Source: Shigella phage SHFML-26. From it: DNA of 64,000 nt. The stretch lies in the sequence record KX130862. One strand, written 5' to 3'. The position numbers and the translations under genes were made by a program. The notes below the pieces were generated by a model. It was not told the DNA's origin. It saw only the letters and a list, made by a program, of their open reading frames with translations, and did no database searches. Shown here one piece after another: positions 4,945 through 63,008 of the stretch. Numbering within the stretch: position 1 is the first letter of the stretch; every line of letters starts with the position of its first letter.

Positions 4945-7208
4945 TACAATTTACACGCTGCACAATCGTCGGCTTTAGGAGTTTCTATTTCATAATCATC
5001 AGTACCAGAACCATCACGGGTATTATGATAATAGAAATTTTTAATGCCATAATACCATCCGTATAGCATGTCATCAATCATTATTGACATTGGAACCTTG
5101 CCTTTAGGGAAGATTTGGGGGTCATAGTATGTATTCGCCGAAGCTGATTGACAAACCCATTTCAGCATAATAGCTACCTGCGTAAGATAAGGTTTATTAC
5201 CTTTCTTAGCTAATTTCCATGTATAATCATATAGGTCTATGTTATGCTCAATATTGGGCACGACTTGATTAAAGGAGCCCTCTTTTGATTCTTTAACAGA
5301 GACTGGTCCACGTGGAGGCTCGATACCGTTTGTACTGTTAGAAACTTGGGAAGATGACTCACATGGCATAAGTGCTGATAATGTGCTATTACGGATGCCA
5401 AAGAGCTTAAGGTCTTCCCGCAGCGACGACCAGTCACAAACGTATTTTGGAGCTGCGATTTGGTCAATCTTTTTATTGTACCAGTCGATAGGTAATTCGC
5501 CTCGAGACCAACGAGTGTCTGAATAATATTCGCAAGGTCCTTTTTCTTTGGCGAGCTTAATGGATGCTTTAATGAGTCCATACTGTAATCTCTCAAATAG
5601 TTCATGTGTTAAATCGTTAGCATCTTCATAAGAAGCAAAGTTACTTGCCAACCAAGCTGCATAGTTGGTAACACCTACACCAAGGTTACGACGCTTTTTA
5701 GCTTTTTCTGCTTCAGGAACTGGATATCCTTGGTAATCCAACAGATTATCAAGAGCACGAACTTGAACTTCTGCCAATTCATTAATTTTATCTTGGTCTT
5801 GCCAGTCAAAATTATCTAGTACGAATGCAGAGAGAGTACACAATCCAATTTCAGCATCAGGACTATTCACATCATTTGTTGGAATAGCAATTTCACAGCA
5901 CAAGTTACTCTGACGAATAGGTGCCTTTTCACGAATAAACGGAGTATAGTTATTCGTATTATCAATGAACTGTACATAAATTCTTGCTGTTCCTGAGCGT
6001 TCAGTCATGAGCAATTCAAATAGTTCACGGGCTTTAATACGCTTTTTACGAATATTAGGGACTTTTTCTGCTGCTTCGCATAATTCACGGAAACGGCTTT
6101 GGTCTTTAAAATAAGAATAATAAAGCTCGCCACCCATTTAATGTGGACTGAACAAAGTAATGTAATCGTTCTTTCCGAATCGTTCCATCATCAAATCATT
6201 CAGTTGAACACCATAATCCATATGACGAATGCGGTTTTCTTCTACGCCTTTGTTATTTTTCAAAACGAGAAGATTTTCAACTTCCAAATGCCAAATAGGA
6301 TAATAAGCAGTAGCAGCGCCGCCACGAATTCCGCCCTGTGAACATGAGTTAACTGCAGCCTGAAAATGTTTCCAAAAAGGAATAACACCAGGATGGCATA
6401 CATCACCCATGCCAATCTCAGAACCTTCGGCACGAATCATACCAACGTTAATACCAATTCCAGCGCGTTTAGAGATATATTCAACAATTGAAGCGGAAGC
6501 CTTATTGATAGACTTCAATGAATCACCTGCCTCAATAACAACACATGAACTAAACTGTCGAGTCGGAGTACGGCAACCAGCCATAATAGGAGTTGGCAAT
6601 GAAATCTGTCGAGTAGATACTGCTTCATAAAAACGGATAACATGTTTTAATCTATCAACAGGTTCATCTTGATGCAATGCCATTCCAATAGTCATAAATG
6701 CAAACTGCGGAGTTTCATAAATTTGACCGGTGGTTTTATCTTTGACTAGATATTTTTCTTTTAATTGCATCGCTCCGGAATAAGTAAATTCCATATCCCG
6801 CTCGTGCTTAATTTTTGATTCTAAAAATGTAATTTCTTCCGCAGAATATTTTGACAATAATTCAGGGTCATATTTACCTTCATTTACACAGTAAGAAATA
6901 TGGTCAATAAATGAACGTGGTTCATACTGCCCATAAACATGCTTACGAAGAGCAAACATTAAACAGCGTGCAGCTACATATTGATAATCAGGTTCTTCAA
7001 CCGAAATAGAATTCGCAGCAGCCTTAATGACAATAGTCTGAATATCATCAGTTGTCATTCCATCACGGAGATAAGATTTAATATTTTCATATAATTCATA
7101 AGGATCTACTGATGTTCCTTCAGCTGCCCAAGATAAAACTTTAATAATTTTTTGTGGGTCAAAGCTCTGAGAAACACCACTACTTTTGATAACATTAATT
7201 AATTGCAT
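4944..7208 (-). pseudogene. nrdA: ribonucleotide reductase large subunit NrdA, reading frame interrupted by in-frame TAA at 6138..6140
   Basis: Track ORFs 6138..7208 (356 aa, ...LFSPH*) and 4944..6137 (397 aa, MGGELYYSYF...) are one RNR alpha frame split by a single stop codon; 356+1+397 = 754 codons. Confidence 0.85.
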
Positions 7209-49498: not shown

Positions 49499-49735
49499 TT
49501 AACCACCTATTTCTGTAGGCGTAAACATTGCAGCATTCTTAGTTTTCCAAGTTGCTGCATCGGAAACTACATCAGAATAAGCTGCTTTTTCTGAAGGAAA
49601 GATTTGATAATGAGAATCTGCAATACGGTGTTCATTTGAATATACATCAAATGCTACAGAAACTTCCATACCTTTAACTTCTTTGCCTTCACCCGCTGGA
49701 TGAGTAAAGGTCTTGATGTTAACGAAACCACCCAT
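49499..49735 (-). CDS. soc: small outer capsid protein Soc
   Basis: 78 aa with the pattern FVNIKTF...KE.SVAF..YS..H.I...HYQ.FPSEKAAYS shared with T4 Soc. Confidence 0.8.
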   Translation of the reverse strand: MGGFVNIKTFTHPAGEGKEVKGMEVSVAFDVYSNEHRIADSHYQIFPSEKAAYSDVVSDAATWKTKNAAMFTPTEIGG

Positions 49736-49774: not shown

Positions 49775-49948
49775 TCAGTCTTCAATGAAAACTTGTGCCA
49801 GGAATTCGTGTTCATCTTGAATTTGTTTATATAAAGCCATTACAGCATTTATATTAGAGCTATCTACTTTAAGTTGATAGGCATACCACTCGTATAAATT
49901 AATTAAAGCTTTTTGTCGTCTAATAAATTCTTCTTTGGATATTTTCAT
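49775..49948 (-). CDS. small hypothetical protein (57 aa)
   Basis: Hand-translated; ATG overlaps the stop of 49945..50145 (ATGA). Confidence 0.35.
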   Translation of the reverse strand: MKISKEEFIRRQKALINLYEWYAYQLKVDSSNINAVMALYKQIQDEHEFLAQVFIED

Positions 49949-50145
49949 TTTGAATGCTCTATAATTAATTTTAAGGCTTCTTTACTGACAAAAATTTCAT
50001 CAAGACCTTCTTCTACACCCCAATCAACTACACGAAGCTGATTAGATAAGAGCTCGTATGTGAGCTCCTTGTCATAATTTTTAAATAGCTGGTCAATACG
50101 TTTCTTGTGGGCTTTCTTAAGCTGGCGTTTATTTAAACGAGCCAT
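49945..50145 (-). CDS. hypothetical protein (66 aa)
   Basis: Track ORF immediately downstream of gene 56. Confidence 0.45.
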   Translation of the reverse strand: MARLNKRQLKKAHKKRIDQLFKNYDKELTYELLSNQLRVVDWGVEEGLDEIFVSKEALKLIIEHSK

Positions 50146-50663
50146 TAATAACCTCGGTCTTGACGAGCGAAGTTTTCAGCATTTTTCAGATAATAAAGTT
50201 TAAAGATTTCTTCAGCCGTAAGACCGAGGCCTTGGAACATGTTCAGAACGAAATGAAGAATATCAATCATTTCGAATTTAATTTCCAACTGGTCTTGTGG
50301 AGACAAATCAGTAATCAGAGTTTCACGTCGTTCACCATGTTGAGCTTTCCAAGGCTTCCATACAGCAGATGCATCTTTTTCACCATTGCTCATACCACCA
50401 AGAGAAGTCAATAGTTCGCGGAATTCATCATCAATATAATCTTTCTGATTACGCAGCCAATCAACAACTTCACCCGCAGTAGCCAAATCATCAGGATGAC
50501 GGTTATATTCAGGTTTATCTTTAGCTAAACGAACCTGCAGAGATTTCTGCATATCAAGCATAACTTGCAACGGGTCTTTTTCATCACCGAGAATATCCCA
50601 GTATTCATTTTGAGCTTTATCAGCGCCTTCAATCAGTTGTGAACATTCATTAAAGTATGCCAT
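50145..50663 (-). CDS. 56: dCTP pyrophosphatase (dCTPase-dUTPase) gp56
   Basis: MAYFNECSQLIEGADKAQNEYWDILGDEKDPLQVMLD...EIFKLYYLKNAENFARQDRGY; track ORF trimmed to Met with AAGGAAA RBS. Confidence 0.85.
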   Translation of the reverse strand: MAYFNECSQLIEGADKAQNEYWDILGDEKDPLQVMLDMQKSLQVRLAKDKPEYNRHPDDLATAGEVVDWLRNQKDYIDDEFRELLTSLGGMSNGEKDASAVWKPWKAQHGERRETLITDLSPQDQLEIKFEMIDILHFVLNMFQGLGLTAEEIFKLYYLKNAENFARQDRGY

Positions 50664-50734
50664 TATTTTTCCTTTCAATTCATGGGTTAGTAGATTAATT
50701 ATACAATAAATATATAAAGCAATAAGGAGGATAT

Positions 50735-50935
50735 ATGGTACAAAAATTAATGGCACTTGTTAATGCCATAAAAGGTAATAAAAAACGTATAGCTTTTACT
50801 ATTTCTGCTATGGTAGGAATTTTACTCTGGAATTTTGTTTTATCACCAATTGCTATTGCTCATGGTGTTAATATTCCAGTAATTACTCTTGATACATTCG
50901 TAGATTTAGCATTTGCTTTAGTTGGGTTAATTTAA
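50735..50935 (+). CDS. small hydrophobic protein (66 aa) on the opposite strand
   Basis: Strong SD AAGGAGG 6 nt upstream of ATG; two predicted TM segments; sits in the 56-61 intergenic gap. Confidence 0.5.
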   Translation: MVQKLMALVNAIKGNKKRIAFTISAMVGILLWNFVLSPIAIAHGVNIPVITLDTFVDLAFALVGLI

Positions 50936-51960
50936 ATCTTAGCGTATTTAGATAGCCGCATTTTAGCCATCAACCCTTGGGCAATATTATTTTTCATATA
51001 TTCCATAATTTGTTTAGGGGTTGCACCTTCCTTTCTAATCATATCATTAACATCTTTTGATTTCCAGGGAGATTTATCCCAAAACATAACCCTTTCTCCT
51101 GCATCAACTAATTTAGTCATTCGTTTAATAGTGTCAGGGTGACGAGGTTCATTATCTAAAACCCATACACGTCTATCTTTAAATGGAACAATTTCTAGGT
51201 CTAATTGACCACCCGTAATAGCTATACCATTTTCAATAAAAAGTGAATCTATAGGTCCTTCTAGAACATATACATCACCATCTTTGACTCGTTCGACTCC
51301 ATAAATTTTTGTTGCCTCAGGATAAGCTTTGATGGTGATATATTTTTGAGGAGCATCTTTCTTTAATGCACGTCCTTGAAAAGACTCAGCTTTTCCGTTA
51401 GCATTATAAATTGGAATAACAAGACGAGGCTCAGGTATTTCCTTTTTATATGTTCCTGGCGCTATACTATTAACTAATTTAGGCCATTCGGTTGTAAACC
51501 AAAGATATTTCCATTTATCCTTTGGAATACAACGAGCTTTTACATATTTTATAATTGGATGGTCTTCCGCCAGTTTATCTAATCTAATGCATGACGGAAG
51601 AGATTTAATTATTTTCTTCTCAGGTTGTTTAGGAAGTTCTTTAGGTTTTTCTACTGGACGACTTTTACCTTTTTCCTTTCTTATTTCAAAGATATACTCA
51701 CGATATAAATCAGGTTCAAACTCCTTTAAATATATTCCGATTGGTGCATGATAGTTACAGTTATAACAATGAATATTTCCTTCATTATTATCGCCATAAT
51801 ACCATCCACGGGCTTTATTTTGGTCGGTTTTTGAATCTCCACAAACAGGACATCTAAACCGTAATTTAAAAGTTGAACTATTATTTACTTGTGTGAATTT
51901 AGGTAAATGAGCTAATGCACGGTATGCAAACTCATTATCAATCCAAGGTATTGATGACAT
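50932..51960 (-). CDS. 61: DNA primase gp61
   Basis: 342 aa with N-terminal zinc-ribbon CPVCGDS...CYNCNYH and TOPRIM region. Confidence 0.9.
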   Translation of the reverse strand: MSSIPWIDNEFAYRALAHLPKFTQVNNSSTFKLRFRCPVCGDSKTDQNKARGWYYGDNNEGNIHCYNCNYHAPIGIYLKEFEPDLYREYIFEIRKEKGKSRPVEKPKELPKQPEKKIIKSLPSCIRLDKLAEDHPIIKYVKARCIPKDKWKYLWFTTEWPKLVNSIAPGTYKKEIPEPRLVIPIYNANGKAESFQGRALKKDAPQKYITIKAYPEATKIYGVERVKDGDVYVLEGPIDSLFIENGIAITGGQLDLEIVPFKDRRVWVLDNEPRHPDTIKRMTKLVDAGERVMFWDKSPWKSKDVNDMIRKEGATPKQIMEYMKNNIAQGLMAKMRLSKYAKI

Positions 51961-51962
51961 TT

Positions 51963-52127
51963 TTACTCTTCTTTTTCTTTAGATTCCTCTTTTTTCTTTT
52001 TAGGAATCTGTTCAGGACCTTTATTTACTACAGCGCCTGACGTTGTTCCAGTGGAGATATTTTCAGGATTACCACCTGAATCTCCAGCTACCATATCTTC
52101 TTTAATAAATTCTTTATATGTTTTCAT
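51963..52127 (-). CDS. small hypothetical protein (about 54 aa, Lys/Glu-rich tail)
   Basis: Hand-translated ORF directly upstream of gene 61. Confidence 0.4.
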   Translation of the reverse strand: MKTYKEFIKEDMVAGDSGGNPENISTGTTSGAVVNKGPEQIPKKKKEESKEKEE

Positions 52128-52128
52128 A

Positions 52129-52755
52129 TTAACCTCTATTCATAAAAGCATTAAAAATTTGGTCATCAATAGAAACATCTACTTTAGACTGTTTTTCTGA
52201 TGGTAATTCATATCCACATATTACAATTTTGTGATCAATATCAAAATACACAGAAGCAATATGATTAATGATGTTTTCAGTAAAGTCTAAATCAACATCA
52301 ATATCTTTTTGACCACAGCCCAAAGGATAAATAATGCGAGTAATTCGATTATCTTTAACAAAGATTCCACCGACATACTCTGTGCTGTGTTTAAAGTCTA
52401 CACGCCGACGAAATGAAAAATATTCAGGCTCTTTATGAGCTCTGCTCATAGGACACAACGAGTAACTAGAATAAGAGATGTCAAATCCTACGCCTTCGAT
52501 ATGAGCCAAAGTGTCATGATTAAACCAATTATAATCGTACGCCAAATCCATTAGATTATAATATGTAAAAGGCACCGGATTAACATCATTAGTCACAAGC
52601 ATATAATTAGCAACTGCTATAATTTCATTGTTTTTAACGAATACAAACCGTGATTGATGTGAATGACCCGGACCCGCGTTTTCACGATTAATGATATAAC
52701 ACTGGGCACCTTTATATTTGTATGTATCTTTACACTTGTGCATTTGATAGAGCAT
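52129..52755 (-). CDS. hypothetical protein (208 aa), 61.2-like by position
   Basis: Track ORF; position and length fit T4 gene 61.2. Confidence 0.5.
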   Translation of the reverse strand: MLYQMHKCKDTYKYKGAQCYIINRENAGPGHSHQSRFVFVKNNEIIAVANYMLVTNDVNPVPFTYYNLMDLAYDYNWFNHDTLAHIEGVGFDISYSSYSLCPMSRAHKEPEYFSFRRRVDFKHSTEYVGGIFVKDNRITRIIYPLGCGQKDIDVDLDFTENIINHIASVYFDIDHKIVICGYELPSEKQSKVDVSIDDQIFNAFMNRG

Positions 52756-53048
52756 TATTCACCTACTACTTCAGCAATGATATTTTTATTATTAAAGTTT
52801 TTATCGCAATACAGAACATAATTATACTGCATTACACCACCAGACTTAAGCTGTTTTTGTACTTCAGCTTTCATTTCAGGACGATCACGCTCAACGATAT
52901 TCATAATATCTGCTTCAATTTGAGTTTCAACCTCAGTCTGATCTGCAGTCATAGACCATTCGCACAAATCTTTGTCATAACCCGCCATAGCAGGCTGAGC
53001 AGCGCAAGAAGATAAAGCAAAAATTGCAGCAAAGATAAATTTTTTCAT
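52755..53048 (-). CDS. sp: secreted 97-aa protein, spackle-like
   Basis: Signal peptide MKKFIFAAIFALSSCAAQPAMA; size and position fit T4 sp. Confidence 0.6.
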   Translation of the reverse strand: MKKFIFAAIFALSSCAAQPAMAGYDKDLCEWSMTADQTEVETQIEADIMNIVERDRPEMKAEVQKQLKSGGVMQYNYVLYCDKNFNNKNIIAEVVGE

Positions 53049-53111
53049 GATAATCTCCTCAGTAGTTTATATTTATAGTATCTCAATTTCCAATAAAAGT
53101 AAACAGTTATT

Positions 53112-53363
53112 TTAAAACTTCTGCAAATCACATGTTACAAACTGTTTCTCTAACTTGGCGATTTTACGAAAGTATCTTTTGCATTGACGAATCTGTCGCT
53201 TTGTAGGGCGCACAACAAACTTAATAAATTCCACTCGACCAAATGGAGGGCTTTCTTCTGCCGGAATATCTAATACTAATTCCCACGTATCTGCAATAAG
53301 TGCTTTGAATTGAGTATTTTTCCTGACGTTATACGGAGTAGGTTTAAATAAAACAATATGCAT
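53112..53363 (-). CDS. small basic protein (83 aa), 61.4-like by position
   Basis: Track ORF 53112..53405 trimmed to Met with GAGGA RBS just after the dmd stop; Lys/Arg-rich. Confidence 0.5.
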   Translation of the reverse strand: MHIVLFKPTPYNVRKNTQFKALIADTWELVLDIPAEESPPFGRVEFIKFVVRPTKRQIRQCKRYFRKIAKLEKQFVTCDLQKF

Positions 53364-53364
53364 A

Positions 53365-53547
53365 TTATCCTCGGCAATCCACTTCACATACTTTCTTGTC
53401 ATCAATGAAAGCTTTAACTAATGCTTTATTAACTTCAGCATATTGAGTAGTAGCCCATTGAACGTCATCTTTCATCATTGTGATCTCTTTAGTAAACATG
53501 CTTTCGTTCTTAAACCACCCCATAAAAACTACCTTTACCAATTCCAT
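53365..53547 (-). CDS. dmd: Dmd (antitoxin against host RnlA/LsoA)
   Basis: 60 aa MELVKVVFMGWFKNESMFTKEITMMKDDVQWATTQY... Confidence 0.75.
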   Translation of the reverse strand: MELVKVVFMGWFKNESMFTKEITMMKDDVQWATTQYAEVNKALVKAFIDDKKVCEVDCRG

Positions 53548-53605
53548 AACAATCTCCTCATTTAACCAACAAGACTACTATACCATAGTCTTGTCAGCTT
53601 GTAAA

Positions 53606-55033
53606 CTAAAATTTTAATTCATTTGCCAAAGCATCTAACTGAGCTCGAGCGGATTCGTTTCTTTGATAGCGATTCTGTTCAGCCTGAATCTGCTGTGAAC
53701 CTGCTACTTCGTTCACTTCAGTTGGAGTAGAATCTTGTTCAATTTCTACCCATTTCTGATTTCCTTTTTGAACACCCATCAAAAACTTATTCCATTTATT
53801 CTTATCACCGTATCGTGATTTGATTTGCTTAATAAGTTGTTGTTCAGCAGCTGCTAGCTCCTCGGTTTCAATGACCGCAAGCATAAAATCGGCTGTTGCT
53901 GGAAGGCCGGCAGATTCTGCAATATCGCTCATGTTAACATCAGAAGAGTCCCAAGCTTGTTTACCAACCTGTGCTGCGGTCCAAAGAACAGTTTCGGTTT
54001 CAACAGCCAGAGCACGCAATTCCTCTGCGATAGCTTTAACAGTTGTGTAACTATTTTCTGAATAAACTCTGATGCGGCAAGATTTACAAATACCCAGATA
54101 GTCAACAATAATGATTGTTGGAACAAAATTCTTCTTGAGCTTCAATTCATTCAAGAGAGACCTGAATGTATTAGCGTCTGCTCCACCAGTAGGATACTGT
54201 TTAACGATTAAACGTCCAAGAGTAGATTTCTCACGCCATTTTTCCATTTTTCCTTTATACTCAGCGTAAGAAATATGCCCATCATCAATGTCATCAAGAG
54301 AAACATCAAGCATATTAGCATCAATACGCTTAGCACAGACTTCTTCTGCCATTTCCATGGAAATGTAAAGAACATTATGTCCGAGCTGCAAATAATCTGC
54401 TGCCAATGAACACAGACCTAATGACTTACCGACGTTAACACCAGCCATTAAAACGTTCAGTGTTCCAGTTTCAGCTCCACCTTTAGTAATTTTATTTAGA
54501 ATTTTGAGTCTAAATGGAACCTTACGAGCTTTATTCATATAAGATAGCCAACGTGCTTCGTAGTCATCCATCCAATCATGACCAACGTAACTATCAAATG
54601 AAATTGATAATGCTTGGCGCATGATGTCAGGAATAGCACCTACATCTGGCATTTTCTTATTTCGTTTTTCCGGAGGAAGCTCAGCATTAGTTTGAATTTC
54701 AATTATTTTAGACGTAGCATTAAACATCGCCCTTTGCTGAACATATTTTTCTGTTTCTTTTACTAACCAGCTATGGTCTTCTGGAGAATCGGCTAGTTTC
54801 GAAATAAGTGTTTTTACACCAGAATATTCTGTTTCAGTAAATGAACTATTTTCTAATGCAACATTTAACGCATTAATAGATGGAACGCTATGGTACTCAT
54901 TAACATGAGATTTAATTAATTTGAATGTATTTTTAGCTGGACCACTTTCAAAATATTCTGAATCCATATATGGCCAAACTTTTGAAAAATAAGCTTGATC
55001 AAATATGAGATGAGAAAGAATAATTTCTACCAC
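53606..55033 (-). CDS. 41: replicative DNA helicase gp41
   Basis: 475 aa DnaB-family with Walker A GVNVGKS. Confidence 0.95.
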   Translation of the reverse strand: MVEIILSHLIFDQAYFSKVWPYMDSEYFESGPAKNTFKLIKSHVNEYHSVPSINALNVALENSSFTETEYSGVKTLISKLADSPEDHSWLVKETEKYVQQRAMFNATSKIIEIQTNAELPPEKRNKKMPDVGAIPDIMRQALSISFDSYVGHDWMDDYEARWLSYMNKARKVPFRLKILNKITKGGAETGTLNVLMAGVNVGKSLGLCSLAADYLQLGHNVLYISMEMAEEVCAKRIDANMLDVSLDDIDDGHISYAEYKGKMEKWREKSTLGRLIVKQYPTGGADANTFRSLLNELKLKKNFVPTIIIVDYLGICKSCRIRVYSENSYTTVKAIAEELRALAVETETVLWTAAQVGKQAWDSSDVNMSDIAESAGLPATADFMLAVIETEELAAAEQQLIKQIKSRYGDKNKWNKFLMGVQKGNQKWVEIEQDSTPTEVNEVAGSQQIQAEQNRYQRNESARAQLDALANELKF

Positions 55034-58371: not shown

Positions 58372-58623
58372 TCATTCCTTCTCTCTGATGATAATTACCT
58401 GATTTGGCTGTGCAGACTTTTTGGTTTCACCCGCAATTGACCAAATAAAGGTAATAAACCAACCAATAATTGACCAGTTAAACAGTAAAGATGTAAAAAA
58501 GATTCCTACTGTCGATTTTGACCCACGCATCAAGGCGATGAACCATGGAAGCATGTATATAATAATAGCCAACACGCCTGAAACTAAAACCATAAAAATT
58601 GAACCTGCTACTAAAGTTTCCAT
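58372..58623 (-). CDS. imm: immunity (superinfection exclusion) membrane protein Imm
   Basis: 83 aa with two TM segments METLVAGSIFMVLVSGVLAIIIYMLPWFIALMRG... Confidence 0.8.
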   Translation of the reverse strand: METLVAGSIFMVLVSGVLAIIIYMLPWFIALMRGSKSTVGIFFTSLLFNWSIIGWFITFIWSIAGETKKSAQPNQVIIIREKE

Positions 58624-59195: not shown

Positions 59196-61706
59196 TCAGC
59201 CAAACAGGAAGTCTAACGAAGCTTTTTCTTCATAGTCCATACCTGCCGATTCACACATACCTGCAAGCGGCTTAACAAACGATTTTTGGAACAAAGTTGA
59301 GTAGTCAATCCAAGATAGTACGTCAGAACGAATTTCTTTTGGAAGTTCTGTACCTGATGGCCAAGCAATGCACTTGTCACCAAATGGATTTCCTTCACGT
59401 AATGGAAGAACCATTACTTTATTTCCATCCAAAATTGGAGCTACACCTAAACCACTAACAGCTCGACGATAAGTTAGCACACCACGAATATGGAATGGGC
59501 ATTTAAATCCTGGCCAACCTTTATCATCATATTTCGCTATATCGTTCGCAGTTTTTACTTCAGCAATAACTTTATAGTCAAGTTGACGATATTCTTTCTC
59601 GAAGTTCTTGTAGTATTCTTGGACAGACTCTTCACCTTCCTGAAGAATACGACGAATACTTTCTTCGAGAGCTTCTTGCACCGCTTTTGGTGTTGAACTC
59701 TGCTGAGTTTCCATACCCATGATTTTTAGATGCGGTTCGGCAAATCGCTTATCTTCCATATCATAAACGTTCAGAGCATAACGTTTTTTCGCTTTCCAAA
59801 ATCCACCAACACCCTTTGAACCAAGCGGAGGGCAAGAAATAGCTTCACGGTCCATATGCATCAGATGCTCGCGGTTATTCATATAATCACATAACTCACG
59901 ATATGCAACATCAATCATAGGTTCCATCTTTTTCTTACCAAACTGATTCATGAATTCAACTAAATCATTTTGTTCTTTAAAGCGGTCAAGACCTACTTTT
60001 TCAATTACTTTATCTACACAAACATATACCGAATCAGTATCACCTGCTGCGATGAAATCTTCACCATTAGTTCCACATACTTTATTCAGATATTCATTAA
60101 TTTTGCGAGCAATCCATTGAATACCGACTTGACCGAAAATTGTGATAGCAGTAGCATTTCGCAAATCATAGTAGCGGAAATGAATATTACCAAGAGCACC
60201 ATAAAGACTGTTAATAAGAATTTTACGGTTCAACTGATTTGTGTTAGCAAGTGTAGCAGCTTTTTCACATTCTTCAATCAGACTGTTAAGAACAGATTCG
60301 GTGTAATTCGATAATTCGTTTAAGAAATCATCATTGAACTTAACATATCGTTCAACTTCCGGTTTAGTTGAACAGGACCCTGCGCCTTTCATAATAATCT
60401 TTTTAATAGCTTCGGCATTCATTTCTTCAGCGAACATTTTCTTTTTCCAATCTTTACGCTGGAAAAATACTTTAGCGATTTCCTTTGGAATGATACCTTC
60501 TTGATGCTTATCATACATCCATCCATTCGGAGAACAAGAATATTCATCACTCGGTTTAGGAGCTGTTCCTGCGATATATTCATGAATTGGATGAACTTTA
60601 AACTGCCCACGAATAGTCTCAGGACTAATGTTAACCTGACGAATAATGCTCGGATACAGAGACGTCAAGTCAAAACTCATAATATATCGACGAGCAATTG
60701 GTTTAGGTTCAAATACAAATGCACCCGGAAAACTCTGTTTAACGTGCGAACCTTGTTGAGGAATAACCTTATGTTCACCTTTCAATGAGTTAAAAATAAT
60801 AGCATCCCAAGTTTTAATAGGACTCATTACACCAGAAAAAGGCATTTTAGCATAATAAGACATACTTAAAACTAGATCGATAAACCCGCGAATTTTATCA
60901 ATTGCTTGAACTGATTCTACGTCAATGATGTTATAACTAATGTATCGTTGATGATTAGTCTCACGAAGTTTATTAATAGGACCGTCGTATGGTAATTTAC
61001 CTTTTTTGGTTTCATGTTGAGCAACTGATTCCAAAGAGAATGACGGCAAATTAGTAAATGCGAATTTCTTATACAAATCTAAATAATCAAGAATAGATAC
61101 GCCATCAATAGAATAAATTTCTTTGCTACCGTACATATTTTGAATTAGTTTAGATTTTACCCGACCGATTGGAGAGAAACGTTTCATACTGCGTTCACCT
61201 AGAATCATTTTAACGCGATTCATAATATATGGAACGTCAAACCCCTCAATATTCCAACCAGTAAAAATAGCAGGTCGTTTCTGTTCCCAGAGATTGATAT
61301 ATTCCATGAGCATATCACGCTCATTATCGAATGGCATATAAATTACTCGGTCAAGAATTTCTTGAGGAACTTCATCACCACCTTCACAGTCAAGCTTAGC
61401 AGCTAACTTTGCATCCCATTTTGATACTGAACCGTACATTGAATTCAAAAGGTCGAAAACATAAAAACGATCATCAATTGAATCGTAATGAGTGATAGCA
61501 TCAATTTCATATTCAGCTTTCATTGGGTCAGGAAATTTATCACCAGTAACCTCAATGTCACAGTTAGCTACACGAACAAATTTTCGGTCATAAACAATTT
61601 CTGAACCATACGTATCACTGATATAAGCGAGTTTAAAATCGTTCATACCGAGAGCTTCGAGACCGATGTCTTCCATTCGTTTCATCCAATCTCGAGCATA
61701 TTTCAT
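59196..61706 (-). CDS. 43: DNA polymerase gp43 (ORF as called; canonical N-terminal ~63 codons lie upstream and are interrupted)
   Basis: 836-aa family-B polymerase starting MKYARDWMKRMEDIGLEALGMNDFKLAY..., corresponding to T4 gp43 from about residue 63. Confidence 0.9.
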   Translation of the reverse strand: MKYARDWMKRMEDIGLEALGMNDFKLAYISDTYGSEIVYDRKFVRVANCDIEVTGDKFPDPMKAEYEIDAITHYDSIDDRFYVFDLLNSMYGSVSKWDAKLAAKLDCEGGDEVPQEILDRVIYMPFDNERDMLMEYINLWEQKRPAIFTGWNIEGFDVPYIMNRVKMILGERSMKRFSPIGRVKSKLIQNMYGSKEIYSIDGVSILDYLDLYKKFAFTNLPSFSLESVAQHETKKGKLPYDGPINKLRETNHQRYISYNIIDVESVQAIDKIRGFIDLVLSMSYYAKMPFSGVMSPIKTWDAIIFNSLKGEHKVIPQQGSHVKQSFPGAFVFEPKPIARRYIMSFDLTSLYPSIIRQVNISPETIRGQFKVHPIHEYIAGTAPKPSDEYSCSPNGWMYDKHQEGIIPKEIAKVFFQRKDWKKKMFAEEMNAEAIKKIIMKGAGSCSTKPEVERYVKFNDDFLNELSNYTESVLNSLIEECEKAATLANTNQLNRKILINSLYGALGNIHFRYYDLRNATAITIFGQVGIQWIARKINEYLNKVCGTNGEDFIAAGDTDSVYVCVDKVIEKVGLDRFKEQNDLVEFMNQFGKKKMEPMIDVAYRELCDYMNNREHLMHMDREAISCPPLGSKGVGGFWKAKKRYALNVYDMEDKRFAEPHLKIMGMETQQSSTPKAVQEALEESIRRILQEGEESVQEYYKNFEKEYRQLDYKVIAEVKTANDIAKYDDKGWPGFKCPFHIRGVLTYRRAVSGLGVAPILDGNKVMVLPLREGNPFGDKCIAWPSGTELPKEIRSDVLSWIDYSTLFQKSFVKPLAGMCESAGMDYEEKASLDFLFG

Positions 61707-61895
61707 TGATGGTAAATTTTTGAGGTAGCGCTAGTTTTTACCATAGATGTCTTTGTACTTTGACTCTTCCTTACAATGCCTAAACATAGTTGGAAGATAT
61801 TCTACTTCACGAGTACGTTCCTTTCCGTTTTCATCAATATAACGTTCAACAATGTTATTTCCGACTGTTTCAATAGAGATATAAAATTCTTTCAT
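61707..61895 (-). other. 43: interrupted 5' segment of gene 43 (54 codons, TAG, 8 codons, in frame with the main ORF)
   Basis: Reverse complement encodes [65 protein letters not shown]; coordinates approximate. Confidence 0.6.
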
Positions 61896-61973: not shown

Positions 61974-62195
61974 TTAAATTAGTACTATTTGTCGGTGAAA
62001 AATTGTCATTCCATCTGCATTAATTGACTTAACGACCGCAGTAAAGTGTTTTTGTTCTGGGTGAATTAATTTTTGAAATTCTACCTGAAATTTTAGTTGA
62101 AGGTTTTCTGGTAAATCGAAAAGTGTTTCTGTTGCAGAAAGATTATATTTTTCTTTAAGAGACGCCATGTATTCTTGTGGAGTTATAGCAGTCAT
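61974..62195 (-). CDS. small hypothetical protein (73 aa) between regA remnant and gene 43
   Basis: MTAITPQEYMASLKEKYNLSATETLFDLPENLQLKFQ...; ATG 2 nt after the regA-frame stop; does not resemble gp62 as recalled. Confidence 0.4.
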   Translation of the reverse strand: MTAITPQEYMASLKEKYNLSATETLFDLPENLQLKFQVEFQKLIHPEQKHFTAVVKSINADGMTIFHRQIVLI

Positions 62196-62196
62196 A

Positions 62197-62976
62197 TTAA
62201 TTACCAATCGTATATTTAGGAACGAGTTTCCATTCATGCTTTTGTTTAAAAGAAATAACTCGGAAGTTATTAGTTAAATCTTTCATAAAAGTTCTTTGAC
62301 CAGGAACGATTTCAATCAGTCCCCAATCTTCTAATAGCCATGCAATCGAATCACGACGAACTTCATCTTCTTCTGTCATTTCAACTTGGCGACCATCCAT
62401 ACGAAGCATTTCTTTAAAATGAACGATATAGTGCTTGCAGATTTCAGTCAATCGACGAATCATCTGCTTCATCATTTCAATTTTATCTTCATCGGTCGGT
62501 TGACCGAACGTAATAACTCGGCAGCGTGACTGAAGTGGTTTAATAATACCATCAATATTATTAGCAGTAATAATAATACTGCAGTTTGAACTATAAGCTT
62601 CCATAAAGGAACGAAGATGTCGCTGAGACTCTGCTAACCCTGAGCGGTCAAATTCATCAATAACGATTACTTTTTGACGACCATCAAATGAAGCTGCACT
62701 AGCAAAATTAGTCAAAGGACCACGAACGAAATCAATTTTACAGTCTGATCCATTCACAAACATCATATCAGCATTTACATCATGACACAATGCTTTTGCT
62801 ACAGTTGTTTTACCTGTTCCTGGAGAAGGAGAATGAAGAATAATATGTGGAATTTTACCTTTACTTGTAATAGATTTAAAGGTTTCTTTATCAAAGGCGG
62901 GAAGAATACATTCATCGATAGTAGATGGACGATATTTCTGTTCAAGAATGTGTTCTTTTTCATTTACAGTAATCAT
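62197..62976 (-). CDS. 44: in-frame fusion ORF: clamp-loader gp44 N-terminal ~185 aa joined to RegA C-terminal ~76 aa
   Basis: MITVNEKEHILEQKYRP...SPSPGTGKTT...DEFD...SRC...MIRRLTEICKH then YIVHFKEMLRMDGRQVEMTEEDEV...KYTIGN without a stop. Confidence 0.8.
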   Translation of the reverse strand: MITVNEKEHILEQKYRPSTIDECILPAFDKETFKSITSKGKIPHIILHSPSPGTGKTTVAKALCHDVNADMMFVNGSDCKIDFVRGPLTNFASAASFDGRQKVIVIDEFDRSGLAESQRHLRSFMEAYSSNCSIIITANNIDGIIKPLQSRCRVITFGQPTDEDKIEMMKQMIRRLTEICKHYIVHFKEMLRMDGRQVEMTEEDEVRRDSIAWLLEDWGLIEIVPGQRTFMKDLTNNFRVISFKQKHEWKLVPKYTIGN

Positions 62977-63008
62977 AATTTCCTCATTCAAGTTTTAGTG
63001 TAAATTAT

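Follow-up and report, generated by a model that had tools for sequence, protein, structure and literature searches.

A T4-type dmd–tifA–sp–adfA–61.1 accessory cluster between genes 41 and 61 of Shigella phage SHFML-26

Introduction

In phage T4, a run of small accessory genes, dmd, 61.4, sp, 61.2 and 61.1, separates the helicase gene 41 from the primase gene 61. Srikant, Guegler and Laub (eLife 2022) renamed 61.4 tifA, reported that T4 61.2 encodes AdfA, and remarked that the region 'may be an anti-TA island' (TA, toxin–antitoxin; PMC9391042). Here we describe the corresponding locus of Shigella phage SHFML-26 (sequence record KX130862), at positions 52129–53547 of a 64,000-nucleotide (nt) stretch of DNA that was analysed as a whole and is referred to below as the window. 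The block is almost certainly the orthologue of the T4 gene 41–61 accessory cluster, and the functions proposed for its products are carried over from what has been published for T4 and RB69.

The toxins inhibited by Dmd include LsoA. T4 Dmd inhibits the toxin RnlA directly (PMC9391042), and RnlA–RnlB is called an anti-phage system in published abstracts. TifA binds ToxN and RNA together, trapping ToxN in a large ribonucleoprotein (PMC10853763), and inhibition of ToxN toxicity, with relief of toxIN defence, has been demonstrated for the homologues of T2, T4, T6 and RB69 (PMC9391042). The periplasmic spackle protein (Sp) binds the tail lysozyme domain of gp5 and inhibits it allosterically, so that superinfecting phages are excluded and the cell resists lysis from without (PMC7677548). 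For AdfA, the RB69 protein interacts with DarT1 in a two-hybrid assay only in its His164 form, and the substitution R164H confers DarT1 neutralisation; the main anti-DarTG factor of T4 is AdfN, or gp30.3 (PMC11257639).

Results

Gene order and family assignment

Four minus-strand open reading frames (ORFs) fill 52129–53547, between gene 41 and gene 61, and their positions and lengths are those that a first-pass annotation of this DNA had given for four small co-oriented genes. A fifth small co-oriented gene, 61.1, which that annotation had left out, follows before gene 61. The genes, with lengths in amino acids (aa), are:

53365–53547, minus strand: dmd (61.5), 60-aa antitoxin mimic, assigned by T4 identity, Pfam and the PDB
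53112–53363, minus strand: tifA (61.4), 83-aa basic protein, predicted RNA-binding inhibitor of the ToxN endoribonuclease, assigned by T4 identity, DUF7279 and phrog_2375
52755–53048, minus strand: sp (61.3), spackle, predicted 97-aa precursor of a 75-aa periplasmic protein, assigned by T4 identity, PF25676 and the PDB
52129–52755, minus strand: adfA (61.2), 208-aa anti-DarT factor A, its start overlapping the sp stop (TAATG)
51963–52127, minus strand: 61.1, 54 aa, tightly packed between adfA and gene 61, assigned by T4 identity
50932–51960, minus strand: gene 61, primase, 336/342 residues identical to T4
53606–55033, minus strand: gene 41, helicase, 472/475 residues identical to T4

The minus-strand order 41–dmd–61.4–sp–61.2–61.1–61 is that of T4 (NC_000866), which served as the reference for the protein alignments, all of them global and pairwise. 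Dmd, TifA, Sp and AdfA align as orthologues of the T4 proteins at 91–100% identity, and T4 work has already published this locus, the functions of these four products and the notion of an island. The gene numbers given in the first-pass annotation, 61.4 for tifA and 61.2 for adfA, are right (PMC9391042). At dmd/tifA, sp/adfA, adfA/61.1 and 61.1/61, the stop of one gene and the start of the next either overlap or are separated by 1–3 nt.

Curated Pfam families exist for Dmd, Spackle and AdfA, and the family matches given below mark the four ORFs as genuine genes, not products of chance. PHROGs assignments agree with Pfam for all four proteins (Dmd, 61.4, Sp and 61.2). NCBIfam returned no match among the five block proteins, and Rfam, applied at gathering thresholds to the whole window, found none. 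Four plus-strand ORFs (52722–53015, 52663–52821, 52051–52200 and 53480–53617; three of them inside 52129–53547) were set aside as antisense shadows, and no phage family matched any of them. The window comes from a Tequatrovirus, a myovirus of the T4-like kind. A 1.8-kb segment containing the block is matched at a minimum of 80% identity by 538 phage records, nearly all from Tequatrovirus and relatives, and is closest to the DNA of Escherichia phage e11/2 (98.4%).

Dmd

The 60-aa protein had been named as Dmd, and it is identical to T4 Dmd at 60 of 60 residues. Pfam PF17587 (Dmd) matches it end to end (residues 1–60 on profile positions 1–60 of 60) with E = 1.6e-46 and 156.9 bits, the curated cut-off being 27. 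The PDB entry 5hy3_B, 'Antitoxin Dmd', matches at E = 1.8e-37, and the solved Dmd structures are 5hy3 and 5i8j. With 100% identity to the T4 protein, the window Dmd would be expected to bind RnlA and LsoA, both of them HEPN RNases, directly and to inhibit them, and it should be fully active.

TifA

The 83-aa protein, described earlier as a basic protein at the T4 61.4 position, fits that description, with a pI of 10.0 and 17 Lys and Arg residues against 8 Asp and Glu. It is identical to T4 TifA at 77 of 79 residues ahead of a terminal frameshift (77/85 overall) and matches Pfam DUF7279 (E = 1e-20, 73.8 bits, cut-off 24.5) and phrog_2375 (2.8e-37). The gene lies immediately downstream of dmd, an arrangement also reported for T2, T4, T6 and RB69 (PMC9391042); its ATG at 53363 stands 1 nt past the dmd stop, with a GAGGA ribosome-binding site (RBS) 6 nt upstream. 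A longer, TTG-initiated ORF of 97 aa (53112–53405) was dropped in favour of the ATG start on three grounds: the RBS, the T4 annotation and a PHROG alignment that starts at residue 15. A sequence search of the PDB with E values up to 1 returned nothing for TifA or for AdfA.

To bind RNA and inhibit ToxN, TifA requires a Pro–Thr helix cap (P53, T54) and the basic residues K55, R56 and R59 (PMC10853763). R52, P53, T54, K55, R56 and R59 are invariant in an alignment of TifA from the window, T4, T6, e11/2 and RB69; the RB69 protein, only 56% identical, keeps the core including PTKRQIRQ. The basic C-terminal helix, with its PT cap and K55, R56 and R59, would bind RNA and ToxN and so form an inactive ribonucleoprotein. 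Residue 41 sets potency, F41 being the weak state found in T4 and F41S or F41H stronger ones (PMC10853763). The window protein has F41, whereas RB69 TifA has H41.

The C-terminus of the window TifA is altered. A 1-nt deletion at about 53126–53131, which lies outside any homopolymer (GATTATGCAG to GATT-TGCAG in the DNA alignment), turns the last six residues, YAEVLK, into four, LQKF, so that the protein has 83 rather than 85 residues and the intact T4-type C-terminal extension (residues 71–85) is not present. Against T4 TifA itself, the 83-aa protein ends in LQKF and the 85-aa T4 protein in YAEILK, and the two differ further by A50V and V69A. A T6-like natural variant was ruled out as the source of this end, T6 TifA ending in YAKVLK. 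The RB69 protein, 70 aa long, is without the whole extension and is nevertheless an active and more potent ToxN inhibitor (PMC9391042), so an intact extension does not define the TifA family.

Spackle

The 97-aa signal-peptide protein, noted before as spackle-like, is identical to T4 Spackle at 94 of 97 residues; two of the three changes fall in the signal peptide, leaving K53E as the sole change in the mature chain. Pfam PF25676 (T4_Spackle) matches over the full length (E = 2.8e-45, 153.3 bits, cut-off 27). In the PDB, 6x6o_A matches at E = 1.1e-60 and the mature chain of 7cn6_A aligns to residues 23–97 (solved Spackle structures: 6x6o, 6xc0, 6xc1, 7cn6 and 7cn7). The Sec-type signal ends in AMA, and the mature chain begins at G23. 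Cys29 and Cys81, which form a disulfide, are present, and the residues that contact the gp5 lysozyme, S32, M33, T34, A35, Q37 and N76, are all identical to T4 (residue roles from PMC7677548). Sp would be expected to have full activity: once exported, it would clamp the gp5 lysozyme domain of incoming T-even tails, blocking superinfection and lysis from without. It is a superinfection-exclusion protein, in agreement with the first-pass annotation, and not a counter-defence protein.

AdfA and gp61.1

The 208-aa protein at the 61.2 position is AdfA. It is identical to T4 gp61.2 at 200 of 208 residues (96%), and Pfam PF23813, 'Anti-DarT factor A', covers it end to end (residues 1–208 on profile positions 1–211 of 211; E = 2.7e-135, 448.9 bits against a cut-off of 27). 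Homologues occur in 485 phage records. His165 of the window protein aligns with Arg164 of RB69 AdfA, which is 70% identical and carries Arg164 as the non-neutralising allele. Eight residues differ from T4; at four of them, positions 62, 66, 82 and 84, window and RB69 share the residue and T4 stands apart. The proposed action is that AdfA would bind a DarT ADP-ribosyltransferase and thereby leave phage DNA unmodified. The gene for AdfN (gp30.3) lies outside the window.

The 61.1 product is identical to its T4 counterpart at 52 of 54 residues (96%) and matches phrog_1823, a family of 'unknown function' (7e-34). Neither Pfam nor NCBIfam gave a match, and a literature search, which listed only two papers, both describing phage genomes by their titles, gave no assigned function. 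Other genes of the region have been called attractive antitoxin candidates (PMC9391042); that remark and the place of the gene within the locus are what would suggest an antitoxin or anti-defence role for 61.1.

Expression signals and repeats

The non-coding features of the block are:

53577–53605, minus strand: promoter of the sigma-70 early type, upstream of dmd (TTTACA, 17 nt, TATAGT; TG ahead of the −10 hexamer; 10/12 matches, extended −10)
53564–53599, minus strand: hairpin of 15 bp, placed between the stop of gene 41 and the RBS of dmd, that overlaps the −10 hexamer of the dmd promoter
53542–53560, minus strand: 19-nt RBS/start repeat, upstream copy, TGAGGAGATTGTTATGGAA, at the dmd start
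53043–53061, minus strand: downstream copy of the repeat, TGAGGAGATTATCATGAAA, at the sp start
53049–53111, minus strand: tifA–sp intergenic region of 63 nt, with a possible promoter (GTTTAC at 53104–53099, TGaGATACT at 53085–53077), TATAAATA at 53077–53070 and the RBS GAGGAG

Promoter-like sites were about as frequent as expected (9 found versus 8.6 expected), and the only one supported is that upstream of dmd, because it lies in a junction nearly identical to the T4 junction where the early promoter driving dmd–tifA has been placed (PMC9391042). The 76-nt gene 41–dmd junction is identical to T4 at 75 of 76 positions and to e11/2 at all 76. Expression would begin at this early promoter with dmd–tifA, followed by the 63-nt spacer and then by the tightly packed string sp–adfA–61.1–61.

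The hairpin has a folding energy of −18.9 kcal/mol (z = −4.8; none of 200 shuffled sequences reaches it) and is conserved in T4, T6 and e11/2 with 1–2 base differences. No T-run follows it, and a terminator scan of 51800–53800 was empty; the hairpin may provide a 3' end or a stabiliser for gene 41 transcripts.

The two copies of the 19-nt repeat (direct repeat family D2) are 84% identical, share an exact 10-nt core, are spaced by 499 nt and bracket exactly the dmd–tifA unit. Microhomologies of 6–10 bp flanking dmd–tifA mediated its tandem amplification in evolved T4 (PMC9391042); the 19-nt repeat is microhomology of this kind, and we infer that it could be used likewise.

The tifA–sp spacer departs from T4 and e11/2 by the loss of 2 nt and by a C-to-T change, which jointly create TATAAATA. 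A late promoter before sp at this motif was rejected, motif counts in the window giving it no support (8 observed versus 9.6 expected). Judging from the sequence, the spacer could possibly act as a promoter.

Expected activity of the alleles

Several points weigh against reading the block as a working anti-defence cluster of the T4 type. First, a private frameshift falls in the last six tifA codons. It lies in an extension that the potent 70-aa RB69 TifA lacks, so that loss of function is unlikely and no effect is expected. Second, 'anti-DarTG' is the weakest functional label of the block because deletion of T4 adfA has no phenotype on DarTG1, or on DarTG2 (PMC11257639), which makes neutralisation of a DarT during infection doubtful even in T4; for AdfA of the T4 type, the DarTG link is weaker than the first-pass annotation implied. 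Third, 'island' fits three of the five genes, Sp standing outside it and 61.1 having no assignment. Finally, the window carries lesions in the essential genes 43 and 44–62–regA, described below, and the source genome may be a mutant or an imperfect assembly.

One alternative accepts the orthology and supposes that one or more of the products are inactive or retargeted, AdfA acting on another DarT or on nothing, and TifA being too weak or damaged by its frameshift; the cluster would then give no protection against ToxIN or DarTG. Another DarT target has been proposed by the authors of the AdfA work (PMC11257639), and the T4 F41 allele of TifA fails against plasmid-borne toxIN unless amplified (PMC10853763). 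The last TifA residues are recoded by a deletion found in no other record, and AdfA differs from T4 at eight positions. However, single-copy native T4 tifA is enough against chromosomal toxIN, and its disruption causes a ~100-fold drop in plaquing (PMC9391042). The frameshift lies past residue 79, within the tail that RB69 TifA does without; His is kept at the decisive position of AdfA; and at half of the AdfA differences it is T4, not the window, that departs from RB69. We consider inactivity or retargeting doubtful. We favour activity of the T4 kind: since the window TifA has the weak F41 state, T4-like behaviour is expected, and the protein should be sufficient against chromosomal toxIN and insufficient against plasmid-borne toxIN. 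AdfA appears T4-like, with the His allele, and its contribution against DarTG1 is uncertain.

Lesions in essential genes and the possible origins of the indels

Two lesions are found in essential genes outside the block:

61707–61740, minus strand: gene 43 (DNA polymerase), 1-nt insertions at 61713, 61726 and 61734, within 22 nt, leaving ORFs 61731–61895 and 59196–61706
62197–62991, minus strand: ORF with a junction at 62432, where gene 44 is joined in frame to C-terminal regA by a deletion of 1114 bp that are present in T4 and e11/2

The gene 43 insertions place an in-frame TAG after codon 54, beyond which the frame is restored (GKN*RYLKNLPSMKY versus T4 GKNCAPQKFPSMKD), and also create an AGCGCT site. 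They occur in 0 of 216 matching phage records, the best of which reaches 96%. The change looks like an amber or engineered lesion more than random indel noise. In the fusion ORF, the part from gene 44 (clamp loader) ends ..TEICKH at about codon 197 and the regA part begins YIVHFKEML..; with the deletion, 44 has lost its 3' part and regA its 5' part, and gene 62 is gone entirely. None of 50,697 phage genomes spans the junction at 62432 (best coverage 52%). Because genes 44 and 62 are essential, the fusion is a laboratory mutation, the mark of a defective genome or an assembly error.

These lesions bear on a second alternative, in which the 1-nt deletion in tifA and the 2-nt deletion upstream of sp are artefacts of sequencing, assembly or laboratory handling and not natural alleles. 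The tifA deletion is seen in 0 of 237 matching phage records; the gene 43 TAG with its three 1-nt insertions and the 44–regA deletion are likewise unseen in any phage record, and a phage with both of these lesions should need help to replicate. Against this, indels are rare: only four events separate the window from e11/2 over a span of 8.3 kb, gene 61 through imm.1, so there is no generalised indel noise, and the tifA deletion, as noted, is outside any homopolymer. An artefactual origin of the two small deletions is possible and, on balance, unlikely.

Is the block an anti-toxin–antitoxin island?

In the model favoured here, Dmd, TifA and AdfA would be phage-supplied antitoxins that replace host antitoxins decaying after the phage shuts off host expression. 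Three anti-TA orthologues lie within 1.4 kb, and the interval differs among T4, RB69 and T2. The description of the block as an anti-defence island in the first-pass annotation holds for these three orthologues, and the idea has been published (PMC9391042); it does not extend to Sp, whose role is exclusion.

A third alternative holds that the co-location was not selected, the 41–61 gap tolerating insertions and gathering unrelated small early genes by chance. The interval does vary among relatives, RB69 having six extra genes interleaved and T2 lacking adfA altogether (PMC11257639), Sp is without a TA link, and 61.1 is without a known function. Chance gathering is set against three independent anti-TA factors directed at three TA types within 1.4 kb, the co-transcription of dmd and tifA and their adjacency in T2, T4, T6 and RB69, and the preference of the T4 authors for an island (PMC9391042). 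We rate a purely neutral gap as improbable. A variable interval fits both a selected accessory island and an insertion-tolerant gap, and the two views are compatible. The further ideas that the window AdfA allele, with its eight differences from T4, neutralises a DarT family untouched by the T4 allele, or that 61.1 is a further antitoxin or anti-defence factor, strike us as very unlikely.

The practical use of the locus is confined to two points. In public records of close relatives, e11/2 included, 61.4 and 61.2 are mostly labelled 'hypothetical protein', and they could be renamed TifA and AdfA. The alleles would also allow host-range prediction, TifA F41 pointing to sensitivity to strongly expressed toxIN and AdfA His165 to the DarT1-binding form.

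Flanking regions of the window

Other features of note lie outside the block:

50684–50931: interval between gene 56 (50145–50756) and gene 61, without the T4 dam methyltransferase gene
50735–50935, plus strand: 66-aa hydrophobic ORF that shares 4 nt with the end of gene 61
49499–49735 and 49775–50145, minus strand: soc region
61974–62237, minus strand: small ORF between gene 43 and regA

The arrangement at 50684–50931 resembles that of RB69, gene 56 abutting a small plus-strand ORF beside gene 61. Gene 56 DNA is 75–81% identical to T4, e11/2 and RB69, which places a mosaic breakpoint at about 50724. The 66-aa ORF matches a conserved phage family, phrog_2024 (5.4e-31), and is annotated as e112_035 in e11/2 and as ORF029w in RB69. 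The soc product (78 aa) is nearer to the RB69 and e11/2 type than to T4 Soc; segF, located in T4 between soc and 56, is missing from the window, and two small ORFs of 57 and 66 aa fill the space. T4 offers no counterpart for the ORF at 61974–62237, which corresponds to e112_052 of e11/2, a hypothetical protein of 73 aa.

Comparison with T4, e11/2 and RB69

With T4, the window shares the order, orientation and spacing of dmd–tifA(61.4)–sp–adfA(61.2)–61.1. The closest public genome for the block is e11/2 (vB_EcoM_112, KJ668714), whose gene content from 61 to imm.1 is the same as that of the window. Its AdfA is 99.0% identical to the window protein. The two phages differ in the 61.4 protein, which is an intact 85 aa in e11/2, and between genes 56 and 61, where e11/2 holds dam and one more ORF and the window is without both.

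RB69 (NC_004928) also carries dmd, 61.4, sp, 61.2 and 61.1 between genes 41 and 61, in the order of the window. Its interval is interrupted by two extra ORFs (040c and 041c) separating 41 from dmd, by imm and imm.1, which separate 61.4 from sp, and by two further ORFs between 61.2 and 61.1. The presence of imm, imm.1, 040c and 041c (5012–5690 and 6153–6899 of the RB69 sequence) shows the interval to be an accessory-gene hot spot, and 040c and 041c are candidate anti-defence genes. The position of imm also separates the two phages. In the window, imm is at 58372–58623, about 4.8 kb upstream of the block and past genes 41, 40, uvsX, a glucosyltransferase gene and 42, and the earlier claim that it adjoins the block is wrong; the RB69 arrangement, with imm and imm.1 inside the cluster, may be where that impression came from.

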